Shown here piece by piece: positions 41,770-62,555 of a DNA stretch of 64,000 bases. Under the pieces are notes generated by a model. The model was not told the DNA's origin. It worked only from the letters and a program-made list of their open reading frames with translations, and made no database searches. Numbering within the stretch: position 1 is the first letter of the stretch; each line of letters begins with the position of its first letter. The position numbers were made by a program, and so were the translations under genes. The DNA is from Eledone cirrhosa (lineage: Eukaryota): assembly GCA_964016885.1 (NCBI GenBank), contig OZ024741.1, forward strand, positions 67,332,001-67,396,000. Reading direction: 5' to 3'.

Positions 41770-42166
41770 CATACAGTGTATTGCAAAATACACTATATAT
41801 ATACATTCATATATATATCGCTATTTCAGAGCACCAATTCTAATTTTCAATTTCTGCTTGACCGACAACCGTTCTGTATAATCAGTTCCTGATTATTACT
41901 AGAATTCTATAAGAACCAAACATTCATGATTTTCAGCAAACAGGCGGAGTACTTAGCTTTGATAAGCACCAAAAAGTGCAAAACAGGGCTCTGTCAGCTT
42001 TATCTCCCCTGTTTGCTGAAAATTAAAGTAAGTGAGACTGTCACTACTCTAAAATAATAGCGTAAGGTCTTCGAAATGATTTTAATTAAGCATACAATGT
42101 ATTGCAAAATACACTATATATACATTCATATATATATTGCTATTTCAGAGCACCAATTCTAATTTT
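41770..42166 (+). mobile_element. Retrozyme-like element family A, copy 1 (321-bp unit plus ~75-bp terminal redundancy)
   Basis: 41770-41847 repeats at 42091-42166. Contains an internal HHR. Flanked by (TA)n. Homologous along its length to 48572-48940. Confidence 0.8.
41930..42022 (+). ncRNA. Type I hammerhead ribozyme, U3:A8 core, G12A lesion
   Basis: agct-TTGATAA-GCAC(caaaaa)GTGC-AAAA-CAG(ggct)CTG-TC-agct. Extended stem I TTTTCAGCAAACAGG/CCTGTTTGCTGAAAA. Confidence 0.8.
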
Positions 42167-43143
42167 ATATATATATATATATATATATATATATATATAT
42201 GAACACGACGGAACTGTGCAGTAGTATTGAACCCGAAACGACGGATTGCAACAAGATGTCCGGATACACACACCAATGCTTAAGCATATAGTGGCCTCTC
42301 CCGTTGATTTCGACGTATGAAGATCCATTCAAACACCCTTTGCAGTTCATTCCGTTTTGATGTTTATAACAGGCATGATATTTTGACACGCCAAGTAATT
42401 GCAAGCAAGTCCACAGATCATGCATGGATGAGGTTTGCAGGACAATGTCGCTGGTATGTTTGATAATGGTTTTTTCCTCCCTCTTGTATATTGTAGCCTA
42501 TGTATACAAAGGATTCAAAGTTCCTGATCCCATTATGAAAAAGATCTCCGCTGCAAGGCCACTTGTTGAAATATCTCATTAGAAATATTGGTTGCTGAAA
42601 GATTACACTTCGTCCTGTCTTATTAAGTCGGCCAAGGCCACTCCTGCGTACTGATTATCTCCAATCTTGCAGTTAGTGAAGGGGTCAGTTTAAGATATTT
42701 TATGAAACGCATGGTTAAACATTCAAAGAGAAAATATCTAACTCTGGCCTTTTCACATATACAGTCCCCATATATATATATATATATATATATATATATA
42801 TATATATATATATATATATATATATATATATATATATACGAAGACATGTCAGGCTAAAATTTGTTTGTGTGAATCAATGTGCAAACACAGTATATAAGGA
42901 GGATTGTTTACCAAAGTATTTCTTGCCTAGTCGATTGTTTTTCATAGTACTATACTTTTATACACCCACGTGTGCGCGCACACACACACACACACATATA
43001 TATATATATATATATATATATATATATATGTGTGTGTGTGTGTGTCTGATGTCAACATGAATGGACCTGTTATTTTTATCTAAAGACATTTTTTCCAATT
43101 CCAAGCCACCCGTCCCTTCAATATATCTTATTTCTCATTCTTT

Positions 43144-43177
43144 CTTCTGATGAAAGACTAGCGACCGAAATGTCAAG
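43144..43177 (+). ncRNA. Minimal type I hammerhead motif (Penelope pLTR type), eroded stem II
   Basis: ctt-CTGATGA-aagactagcgacc-GAAA-TG-TC-aag. Related to the motif at 52926-52958. Confidence 0.6.
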
Positions 43178-43320
43178 TCCCTCTTCCTGCTATTTCAAGC
43201 GTTAACCTAATATATTCCTTTCATATACTGTTCCGATTGTGTTGTTATTTCTGTTTACCATTTACATATATATATATATGAATATATAGACGTAAACATA
43301 TATATTTTAATAGTACGACG

Positions 43321-43395
43321 GGCATTGGGTGTGTGGTGGCTGCAGACATTGTGTAGAAATCTGTTGATCGGGTTCAATGCCACCGCAGAGTCCCC
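43321..43395 (+). mobile_element. tRNA-like short repeat; related inverted copy at ~42205-42280
   Basis: GGGTTCAATGCC B-box-like motif; the two copies align by eye. Confidence 0.5.
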
Positions 43396-43450
43396 TCTTG
43401 TTTATATATATATATAGAGAGAGAGAGAGAGAGGATAAGAGAGAGAGAGA

Positions 43451-43590
43451 TTGCGAAAGCATGAAAGTACTTATTCAATTAACACTTAACATTTAATATT
43501 CTACCATACTATTTCATTCTAATACCATTATAATTTTAAAGGATTGTAAATAAAACGAGTAAATCAGACAAAGTTGGAATTACTTTTATT
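43451..43590. repeat. ~140-bp AT-rich dispersed repeat; inverted copy at 62722-62862
   Basis: Near-identical reverse-complement match; both copies abut microsatellites. Confidence 0.9.
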
Positions 43591-44757
43591 AATATAATCT
43601 TCTATACACAATCATACACATCCGTTTATATTTATTTATATATATATATACACACACACACACTCGCACACACATTATACAGAATCGTGTTATTCAGAAA
43701 GTAATCTGATTGGACAATAAAGTTTCAAATCGCATGATACCATTGTGGTAATATTGCAAACAATATAAGCATGACTCATTAAAATATGCGTTGCATATCA
43801 ATAAGAATGCATACATGGTCGCCTGTATGTATGCATATATATATATATATATATACAGTATATATATATATGTATATATATATATATATATGTTTATATA
43901 TATATATATGTATGTATGTATGTGTGTGCGTGCGTCTTTGTGTCGGTGTATACGTATGTTTTGTATGTATGAGCTTTCTATAAATCTATCTTGACATCTA
44001 AATATAAAAATATCATCTCCTTTGTCTAGATGGCTAAAGGATATATTCACTCAGACACACACACCCACACACATCACACACTTCCTTTCTCACTCCCCCT
44101 CTCTCTCTCTCTTGCTCTCTCTCTCTTTCTCTATACACATATATATATATATATATATATAGATATTTGTGTATATATATATATATATATATATATATAT
44201 ATATATATATATATATATATGCACACACACTCAGACACACATATATATATATATATATACATATATATATATATATATATATATATATATATATATATAT
44301 ATATATATATATATATATATATATATATATACACATATATTATATTCATATTCATGTGTGTGTATATATATTATCTTATATAATTGCAGCCATTCATATG
44401 AATATTTACAACACTGCATTCTTACATAAATTGATCAGTATCGACATCTTAACATTATTACGCAAAACTCAATACATAATTGATGACTTATTGTGTTAGA
44501 TACTGAATCACCAATGACTCGTATCCTATGGGGCAAAAATACGAGATATCTTGATGTCACATATGCGAAACCATAAATCAAATATGTTTTCTAAACTGAA
44601 TAATATGGCAATATGCTAACATATGCAGAAATGATACACACGAGTGCGCACGCACACACAAGCGAAACATACACACCTATATATATATCCTGTGCTTGTA
44701 TATGTACATATAGATGCACACTCACACGAGCACATATACATTTGTATACGTATATAT

Positions 44758-59839: not shown

Positions 59840-59912
59840 TGTATGTATGTATGTATGTATGTATGTATGTATGTATGTATGTATGTATGTATGTATGTAT
59901 GTATGTATGTAT

Positions 59913-60264
59913 GAAGGAAAACTCTGATATAACACCTGCAACCCTGATGGTATCCAATGATGTTGACTTGTTCTTCTTTTTGGTAAATATCATCTTGGTT
60001 AAGAGAGTGGGACTGGCTTTGTGCAGTGCCTTTGCTCTCTATAAAAGCTTCACGGCACAGGCATTGCTTTGTATCTGGAGATCTCTCTGCACTTGTCGTC
60101 ACATGGTACCTGTGTCAATAATTGTCACAAGTGTAGTGTTTGTACCAGAGTTTTCAAGTCACTGGCTGGACTAAAAAGTCACACTCGTTCAGCACATCGG
60201 TAGGGGTTCTCCTACATGGATATAAAGTAGTGGCCGTACTCGAAAACGAGTTGGCAGCCACCAT
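59913..60264 (+). mobile_element. Second copy of the (ATGT)n-flanked retroposon
   Basis: Reverse complement of 57666-58030. Confidence 0.78.
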
Positions 60265-60389
60265 GTATATATGTATGTATGTATGTATGTATATATGTAT
60301 GTATGTATGTATGTATGTGTTTTCTTTAAGATTTATATTATTTCTTCTTTGCAGAAGAAACTATTCTATAGAAGAAGCTATTCTATACA

Positions 60390-60998
60390 ATACCTAGACA
60401 ATAAGGAAAATTAGAATGCCTCCAAACAACCACGTTGCGATAGATAATCTTGATCGTGTCATAGTATTGTGGAAGATATCATCGACATCATTAGCAGCTT
60501 ATGGCCAAAGTGTCTAGAAGTTACTACTATACTATGAGACACGACGTAGGAGCAAACATTATTTACACTGATATCTGCAGAAATGATCCTTTGATGGCCA
60601 CACTAGAGACACAGAAGAACCTGAAATTGTCCACAGATATAAAGGTATGAAATACTGTTAAAACGTTCTAATAAATACAGCTCTCAGGTGTAAATCTAAC
60701 AAACCTGATATAGGTCTATGTGACAGAACAATAGAAATACCTACAAAAGTAATGTATATATATCAACAGGGCCTATGAGAGAAACATACATACATACATA
60801 AAATATAGATACTTGTATATGCATATATAAAGAAGAACCTGAAATTGTCCACAGATTTAAAGGTATAAAATACTGTTGAAAGGTTCTAATAAACACAGCT
60901 CTCAGGTGTAAATCTAACAAGTCTCATATAGGTCTATGAGACAGAGAACACTAGAAATGCCTACAGAAGTAATGTACATATAACCACGGCCTATGAGA
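60390..60998 (+). pseudogene. Decayed RLE fragment with an internal ~170-bp duplication
   Basis: VEDIIDIISS..YYYTMRHDV and NKPDI motifs. 60613-60780 repeats at ~60832-60998. Confidence 0.6.
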
Positions 60999-62079
60999 GG
61001 GTGTCCAGTCGGTACTTTGTTCCGGGACCCAAGAGCTAAGAAGGCTCCACAGCAACCATGCAACATCTATTTTGAGAAAGATCTTTGCCTACTTCAGTCT
61101 TGTATCGCCTTGCAAAATTTCTCTTGGAGGTCCTGCATATCACCTTAAAGTGTAAAAGATGGAAATATATCGTGAACTAATGTGTGACTTAAAGCATTTT
61201 TATACTAACTGTAGATTCTGTTTTGTACCTATTATCATATTCCCACTTGATTGTGTAACAACTGATTTACAAAATAGCCGAAAAATGCTGGGATTTGCCC
61301 AGATGGAATAAATCAAACCGACTCGCATCCTATAAAATTAAAGTAACATTAACGGAACAGAGAATATTTACAAGATATTTAAAAATTCTGCATTTGAATT
61401 TCCTGGAAGGAACATATATGGCGTACACACATATATCTAAAGACGAGAAAAGCACACACACACACGCACACATACACACACACACACACACACGCACACA
61501 CACACACACACATATACACATGCACACACACCCACGCACACACACAGACACACATGCACATACACATACGTACACATATACACAAAAAGAGACACGCACC
61601 CACTCACACACGTGCACAATCACACACAAAGAAACACACATGCACGGCCAAACAGGCACACACATACAGAGGCGTGTAAACACATATAGAAACACGAACA
61701 CATATCTACCGATGAAAAACATCCTCAAATAATATATATGCAACTACAAACGCCTGTATATATATGTGTGTATGTATGTATGTATGTATGTATGTATGTA
61801 TGTATGTATGTATGTATGTATGTATGTATGTATGTATGTATGTATGTATGTATGTATTTATGTCGGGTCCCTCTAGCGTGCTACTAGTAACATGTAATCC
61901 AGTACAACCTGTCGCATGGTCGGGTCGTCGGCGACTAAACCGGCCAACTTTACTTGGTGATGAAGGGTGATTTTCGACACCCTGCAGGACAAAAAACAAA
62001 ACCTGACAAAGGACGGAAGAATTCACAAGAATCAACGGCCATCCGAATTGTGTAAATATGTATATACACATATACCGCG

Positions 62080-62391
62080 TGGTTAAACCACTGGGAGTGA
62101 AGGACCCCTAGCCTTTGTCATGGCATTCTTCTAGGAGAAGGCAACTCAGTAAACTGGGATAACTCCGTTATAAAACCTGCGGCTCAGTAGTTACCGATGA
62201 TGTTGATCTTTTCTTCTTTTCGGATTATAGCTACTGTCGCTCAGAGAGTGGGATTGGCTCAGTGCACAGTCTTTCCTCATTTAAAAAAAAATTTTCATGC
62301 ACAAGAATTGCACGATAGAATTAATTAATAATTATTAATAATAGTATATCATGCAATGGTCATACTCGATAACGAGGAGGCAGCCATCATG
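62080..62391 (+). mobile_element. Diverged relative of the (ATGT)n-flanked retroposon
   Basis: TAGCCTTTGTCA.GGCA..CTAGGAGA, GATGTTGA..TTCTTCTTT, AGAGTGGGA.TGGCT and GGCAGCCA are shared. Confidence 0.65.
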
Positions 62392-62517
62392 TATGTATGT
62401 ATAAAGGTATGTATGAAGGTATACATGTACGATTGTATGTATGTATGTTTGCATATATATATATATATATATATATATCAGATGTGAGAAAAACCACAGA
62501 CCCTCCATCTCAACTCA

Positions 62518-62555
62518 CCTTTTGAAAAGCAGAAGAACTGCGAAACCGGTAAAGG
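62518..62555 (+). ncRNA. Type I hammerhead, U3:A8 core, all three stems intact
   Basis: cctt-TTGAAAA-GCAG(aagaa)CTGC-GAAA-CCGG-TA-aagg. Confidence 0.8.

Follow-up and report, generated by a model that had tools for sequence, protein, structure and literature searches.

U3:A8 hammerhead cores are the inherited norm of three repeat families in Eledone cirrhosa

In a 64,000-nt stretch of the Eledone cirrhosa genome, referred to here as the window (assembly GCA_964016885.1, contig OZ024741.1, positions 67,332,001 to 67,396,000 of the forward strand), three hammerhead ribozyme motifs read TTGANAA instead of the canonical CTGANGA, such that the C3:G8 tertiary pair of the core is replaced by U3:A8. 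In this 3.0-Gb, TA-repeat-rich genome, three repeat families have inherited U3:A8 as their norm, and it is not a product of decay in individual copies. The explanation that we consider probable is that the three motifs are copies of type I hammerheads from two related Penelope-like families (C and D) and a retrozyme-like repeat (family A), whose source elements exchanged C3:G8 for U3:A8, likely by selection for paired, cleavage-competent cores. Support for selection on the source elements comes from the family-level state of U3:A8, the rarity of single mutants and two joint switches within family A. A first-pass annotation had placed the three variant heptamers and a C3:G8 sibling in the window, and all four are found on the forward strand (TTGATAA at 41959 and 50173, TTGAAAA at 62522 and CTGATGA at 48771). 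Its description of 62518-62555 as having perfect stems and a GUA site also agrees with the sequence on inspection. The features concerned are as follows.

41769..42166, forward strand: family A, subfamily A1, about 1.2 units of the ~320-nt non-coding retrozyme-like repeat, 95-96% identical to locus L222
41955..41999, forward strand: A1 type I hammerhead, U3:A8 core at 41959-41965, G12A at 41980, GUC site ending at 41995
48572..48945, forward strand: family A, subfamily A2 copy, 77-79% identical to the A1 locus L222 and in the A2 clade of the tree
48767..48808, forward strand: A2 type I hammerhead, C3:G8 core at 48771-48777, one stem-I mismatch
49901..50441, forward strand: family D, the 3' end of a Penelope-like element in decayed form, with 76-77% identity to L119 and L113
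50169..50214, forward strand: D minimal hammerhead, U3:A8 core at 50173-50179, weak stem I, GUU site
62479..62698, forward strand: family C, solitary copy of the 3' end (220 nt, 5'-truncated) of a young Penelope-like element of apparent Neptune/Nematis type, between TA repeats, 98% identical to the terminal repeat of the full-length L219
62518..62555, forward strand: C minimal hammerhead with its U3:A8 core at 62522-62528 and a CCGG palindrome at 62546-62549; cleavage is predicted after 62551 (GUA)
62549..62646, forward strand: candidate intron proposed from sequence, with a donor-like GTAAAG overlapping the cleavage triplet, a pyrimidine tract and an AG end at 62646

The type I core (U4 G5 A6, A9, G12 A13 A14, A15.1-U16.1, H17) is intact in the motifs at 62522, 50173 and 48771 and in the family norms, with the exception of the 41959 copy, in which the catalytic G12 is lost. 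G12 is the general base of the hammerhead and is kept in 92 of the first 100 listed copies of the subfamily; the 41959 copy is likely dead. In the 50173 copy, stem I has 2 pairs followed by a mismatch and stem II has 3 bp where family D has GATG/CATC, while the mismatch in stem I of the 48771 motif is A.C. Among the U3:A8 motifs of the window and the C3:G8 sibling, only 62518-62555, with its 4-bp perfect stem I and 4-bp stem II, passes a strict descriptor. This motif is the norm of family C, sharing its perfect stems with thousands of copies, and as a solitary minimal hammerhead it likely needs a dimer partner. Two of the three window copies have decayed, and selection can have acted on source elements only. 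A U3:A8 descriptor gave three matches in positions 36001-64000 of the window and none in each of 200 dinucleotide shuffles, but it was written to admit these very motifs, which makes this a weak test and the genome-wide counts the better evidence. No hammerhead family appears among the best 150 of 213 Rfam matches, and those 150 are driven by microsatellites only.

When positions 3, 8 and 12 are left free, the A1 stem pattern has 232 genome matches; among the first 100 listed, counted by hand, 95 are U3:A8, 3 U3:U8, 1 C3:A8 and 1 G3:A8, and none is C3:G8. The A2 pattern has 287 matches, the first 100 of which, counted in the same manner, comprise 89 C3:G8, 6 C3:A8, 3 U3:G8 and 2 G3:G8 cores and no U3:A8. 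Subfamily A4 is U3:A8 in 19/19 matches, 17 of them not used in the design of its pattern. For family D (576 genome matches), 30 loci include 25 U3:A8, 2 U3:G8, 2 U3:U8 and 1 C3:A8 cores and no C3:G8. The family C pattern, with positions 7 and 8 free, has 12,454 matches against 0 for its reversed control, many of them in head-to-head pairs; A8 is present in all 100 matches listed, U3 in 30/30 loci, and none of these 30 is C3:G8. The copy-specific damage in 41959 and 50173 might suggest that C3:G8 hammerheads decayed to the window motifs three times over, independently. Yet each family has U3:A8 as its norm, and C3:G8 is missing from every A1, D and C copy just counted. These family counts refute independent decay, to which we assign next to no probability.

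Samples chosen independently of the ribozyme were obtained from flank anchors. For family A, the first 100 of 2,947 anchor matches and the two window copies, minus four truncated or gapped loci (L371, L373, L396 and L404), yield 98 rows, with position 3 and 8 states of CG (58), TA (31), TG (3), CA (2), AG (2), CT (1) and AA (1); the 3:8 pair is thus Watson-Crick (U:A or C:G) in 89/98. For family C, 14 copies in 1.24 Mb not chosen for the motif were scored by eye, giving 12 U3:A8, one degenerate and one deleted motif.

A genome-wide excess of U3:A8 over the single mutants, the test called for beforehand, is observed, the doubles exceeding the singles about 60-fold. One generic pattern, defined by G10.1-C11.1 and a four-base helix III, finds 9,656 C3:G8, 74 U3:G8 and 130 C3:A8 motifs (controls 5-8). 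For U3:A8, the count covers the 413 motifs of the generic pattern with a non-C base at 10.2, to which family C contributes approximately 12,000 more. The listed singles are mostly scattered mutants of large families, with about 37 of the 74 U3:G8 motifs judged by eye to be derived from C. In an evenly spaced 600-kb sample (reversed control 0), 31 intact motifs consist of 25 C3:G8 (11 in one array), 5 U3:A8, 1 U3:G8 and 0 C3:A8. Separately, a U3:G8 motif with a 7-bp stem I lies on the minus strand near the end of L156 and could be either a decayed copy or a member of a single-mutant family, and long tandem arrays of canonical C3:G8 units (466-469 nt and 310 nt, some two-armed) occur at G000:C1:5736826-5752444 and in L185.

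Copy numbers mirror amplification and not independent events, and the relevant test is therefore a tree. The family A tree was built without columns 3 and 8 from an alignment of 253 columns; as it is unrooted, it does not establish the direction of the switches. On this tree, the distribution of CG and TA requires two changes, each involving both bases together, and the TG and CA single-mutant rows are unclustered tips. One U3:A8 group contains 31 rows, including 41959 (support 87/97), and the other, A4, consists of 2 rows within the A2 clade (support 100/90); A4 has a perfected stem I and helix III palindrome. A single U3:A8 clade is rejected (p-AU 0.0033), with the proviso that the group was named only after the tree had been seen. 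Each of the two switch branches makes up 2.8% of the internal tree length, and by our own arithmetic, the chance of two free position-8 changes falling on both is about 0.002. In family A, an independent-pairs sign test lacked the pairs needed to reach significance. Stems II and III and distal helix I also show paired changes between subfamilies. The covariation within family A that had been suggested from the window alone is hence borne out as two joint switches. The accompanying proposal that the same double change, seen three times, reflects selection rather than decay gains from these switches and from the family-level state, but the three occurrences are not three independent events, as C and D are kin.

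The same tree bears on whether U3:A8 arose once or rarely and was carried from one subfamily or family to another by gene conversion or template switching of the core, in which case it would be functional without being recurrent. Such transfer is made conceivable by the insertion of all these elements into the same TA repeats, where they often adjoin, and by the identity of the seven core letters in A1, A4 and D. However, the A4 core is flanked on both sides by A2-like bases, and any transferred tract would thus be ~7 nt; C differs at position 7, and the single clade is rejected as described above. We regard transfer as very unlikely to explain the pattern and continue with selection on source elements as the preferred explanation.

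Family A consists of a ~320-nt non-coding unit in short tandems, with one type I hammerhead per unit, and neighboring hammerheads are 303-326 nt apart in five loci; for same-strand hammerheads in L222, L224, L066 and L133, the distance is 303-319 nt. The lone adjacent reverse transcriptase (RT) frame examined, in L032, belongs to another element. On the basis of its sequence, family A appears to qualify as a non-LTR retrozyme, having a short tandem unit that is non-coding and contains a single type I hammerhead, and it resembles the metazoan examples (PMC7229834; bioRxiv 10.64898/2026.07.22.740005) in these respects. Unlike those described there, it occurs mostly as 1-2 units rather than long arrays and mixes C3:G8 and U3:A8 subfamilies. 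Its ends are head-to-head, as in Penelope insertions. Downstream of the A1 hammerhead in the window, there is a candidate intron at 42028-42148, with a GTAAGT donor and a TTTCAG acceptor ~120 nt apart.

The upstream sequence of the family C motif in L001 leads to a GIY-YIG fragment. A search with this fragment gave 10,603 candidates, 150 of which were scored, and 16/150 lie inside a 775-aa open frame. Among the endonuclease loci fetched, 28/30 contain a hammerhead, and all 31/31 motifs are U3:A8. The full unit in L219 has the order hammerhead, 409-aa frame, overlapping 775-aa frame (RT, CX4CX2C linker, GIY-YIG), 1.05-kb tail and hammerhead, with the two hammerheads at 3181 and 7870 flanking the frames. 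Within L219 4492-6816, GIY-YIG scores over its cut-off (E 2.1e-6), while RVT_1 falls just below (E 1.3e-6, 28.7 bits versus a cut-off of 29.6). The translation of L217 has a C-X4-C-X2-C linker before the endonuclease, in line with the CX2-5CxxC form, and L218-L221 display the Penelope-like traits of partial-tandem terminal repeats, inverted truncated copies and a hammerhead. Family C thus fits an endonuclease-bearing Penelope-like element of Neptune/Nematis type, a placement made by domain features and not to either clade singly. It shares with the Neptune/Nematis elements (Craig et al. 2021, PMC8557442) the RT, the linker and the GIY-YIG domain, as well as hammerhead-bearing terminal repeats, inverted 5'-truncated copies and TA targets, and differs from those described in having a U3:A8 core.

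The two frames of family C (L219:3353-6816; also in L220 and L221) are arranged as 409 aa followed by an overlapping 775 aa in the -1 frame, and a slippery-type TTTTTTA run is found in the overlap in 8/8 copies seen. A programmed frameshift between them is possible; a frameshifted ORF1 and a 5' intron are mentioned as optional for Penelope-like elements in general (PMC8557442). No spliced genomic copy of family C was found in 1.76 Mb of loci, and the sole match for family A is an unrelated sequence. A search of sequencing runs for family C listed no RNA run containing it, and contigs of three runs of unrecorded kind contain no joint at the family C candidate intron; these two results bear neither on expression nor on splicing. 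Frames in L023/L025/L134 and L032/L133, considered as those of families C and A1, were rejected because they belong to other, neighboring Penelope-like families. L134, L133, L023 and L025 hold such families, with C3:G8-type cores, adjoining families C and A in shared TA repeats.

Family D is known from partial copies, a full-length element not having been recovered. Four other, independent insertions carry GIY-YIG remnants that precede the motif by 555-730 nt; these are 45-54% identical to the C endonuclease, which identifies D as an endonuclease-bearing Penelope-like element related to C. The CCGG helix III is common to both families, and an older relative in L313 is also U3:A8. A single shared origin of U3:A8 in C and D is possible, and as they are kin, 50173 and 62522 do not count as separate events. 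The related endonuclease remnants in L163, L131 and L228 have no linked hammerhead, and no C3:G8 sister of C/D came to light.

Under selection on source elements, the switch would proceed by two transitions (C to T and G to A), with a source lineage passing briefly through a single mutant and spreading again only once the 3:8 pair had been restored. The short palindromic helix III would form between two hammerheads, in tandem units or in two RNAs, and two C motifs are indeed predicted to cofold at -22.5 kcal/mol versus -7.5 for each alone. Cleavage would then cut tandem transcripts into RNAs of unit length that can be reverse-transcribed, the role proposed for Penelope-like hammerheads (PMC4209133), and most genomic copies, including 41959 and 50173, would be inert leftovers. 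U3-A8 ribozymes are stated to have been shown active in vitro (PMC3088659), and self-cleavage of the motifs in this genome is putative. Cleavage by family C would likely be slow, given a stem I of 4 or 3 bp, the lack of a visible loop contact and a possible U3-A17 trap; family A, which has C17 as well as a long distal helix I, is the better candidate for efficient cutting.

Several points weigh against selection for cleavage-competent cores. Only two switches are documented in A, in addition to at least one in C/D; the U3:A8 group was named post hoc on a short alignment, and conversion among subfamilies might pass for a second origin. The stems are not uniformly sound: the A4 norm has A.A at 10.1:11.1 (stem II base), even typical D copies have a poor stem I, and a 3-bp stem I occurs in 4/12 flank-selected C copies and accounts for roughly half the contig depth of run X1. 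Strong activity in particular is not favored by the predicted monomer fold of family C, in which helices I and II form but helix III does not, with an unremarkable z of -1.1. A U3-A17 pair extending stem I is predicted to be 1.7 kcal/mol more stable in family C, analogous to the C3-G17 trap proposed previously (PMC3884650). Finally, a C3-G8 minimal Penelope-like hammerhead is reported to show no monomer cleavage and low dimer cleavage (PMC4209133).

The weak stems, which are fixed in D, A4 and a large share of C, are also what would be expected if the U3:A8 motifs were vestigial or nearly inactive, the double change having arisen by AT-ward mutation in a few sources and hitchhiked without selection for cleavage. 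Both changes are transitions toward A/T, and Naiad elements are described as proliferating without canonical hammerheads (PMC8557442). This account must contend with the retention of the remaining core nucleotides in every subfamily norm, with the occurrence of both changes on the same two branches of the A tree and with the lack of a high-copy single-mutant family within the one generic pattern. We judge it unlikely, and selection on source elements remains the preferred explanation. A more elaborate scenario, which we offer as speculation with little expectation that it holds in full, is that the 3:8 pair crossed a fitness valley repeatedly in the Penelope system and that the U3:A8 and A17 of C make up a tuned, leaky switch, cut when U3 pairs with A8 and trapped when it pairs with A17. 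With a splice donor on the cleavage triplet, cutting, splicing and read-through would compete over longer-than-unit RNA for retrotransposition, and family A would keep matched C3:G8 and U3:A8 sisters as a record.

Both the U3:A8 variant and its Penelope-like link are already published (PMC3088659, PMC4209133), and the gain here is accordingly modest. Covariation of C3/G8 to U3/A8 is described for a number of natural hammerheads (Perreault et al. 2011, PMC3088659); those variants, as presented there, are scattered examples, whereas here U3:A8 is the norm of high-copy retroelement families. A close precedent is the set of ~1,300 U3-A8 minimal hammerheads that Cervera and De la Pena (2014, PMC4209133) reported in Schistosoma mansoni, in Penelope-like elements named Cercyon. 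Like the Cercyon motifs, ours have the same core swap within Penelope-like terminal repeats, mostly solitary truncated copies, nearby opposite-strand pairs, a palindromic or minimal helix III and a proposed action as dimers. Unlike them, they belong to another animal and other families, with about 10 times more copies and a young family with intact frames, and they have a 4-bp helix II without an extra base after A9 and a tree of repeated switches. The accessible text of PMC4209133 holds no such switch tree and no test of the U3-A8 motif. Our literature search found no study of the U3:A8 variant in this kind of animal and no repeated-switch tree, although the supplements of PMC4209133 may hold cases. 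New here are the tree-based evidence for two joint switches within a single family and the connection to a young family whose frames are intact.

Whether the hammerheads of animal Penelope-like elements cut or merely ride along is treated as an open question in the literature (PMC4209133, PMC8557442). Repeated joint switches of a tertiary pair provide comparative evidence for selection on the catalytic fold rather than on the letters themselves, and the A1/A2/A4 sisters and the young family C are ready natural constructs for cleavage testing.

The window contains further repeats. A hammerhead family B is found on the minus strand at 49072-49106 and 49403-49437, with the two motifs 331 nt apart, one a canonical C3:G8 and the other with G8 changed to C. 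A 21-kb satellite with a 33-nt G/T-rich unit, ~650 copies and extreme strand skew occupies 7-21423, and beside it lie remnants of non-LTR retrotransposons with RT frames at 26330-29545 (forward strand) and at 30856-33009, 33003-33668 and 34156-35466 (minus strand). Lastly, at 57612-60317, ~400-nt inverted repeats that are 97-98% complementary flank a 1.9-kb core whose minus strand contains a retroelement-like frame (59342-59989).

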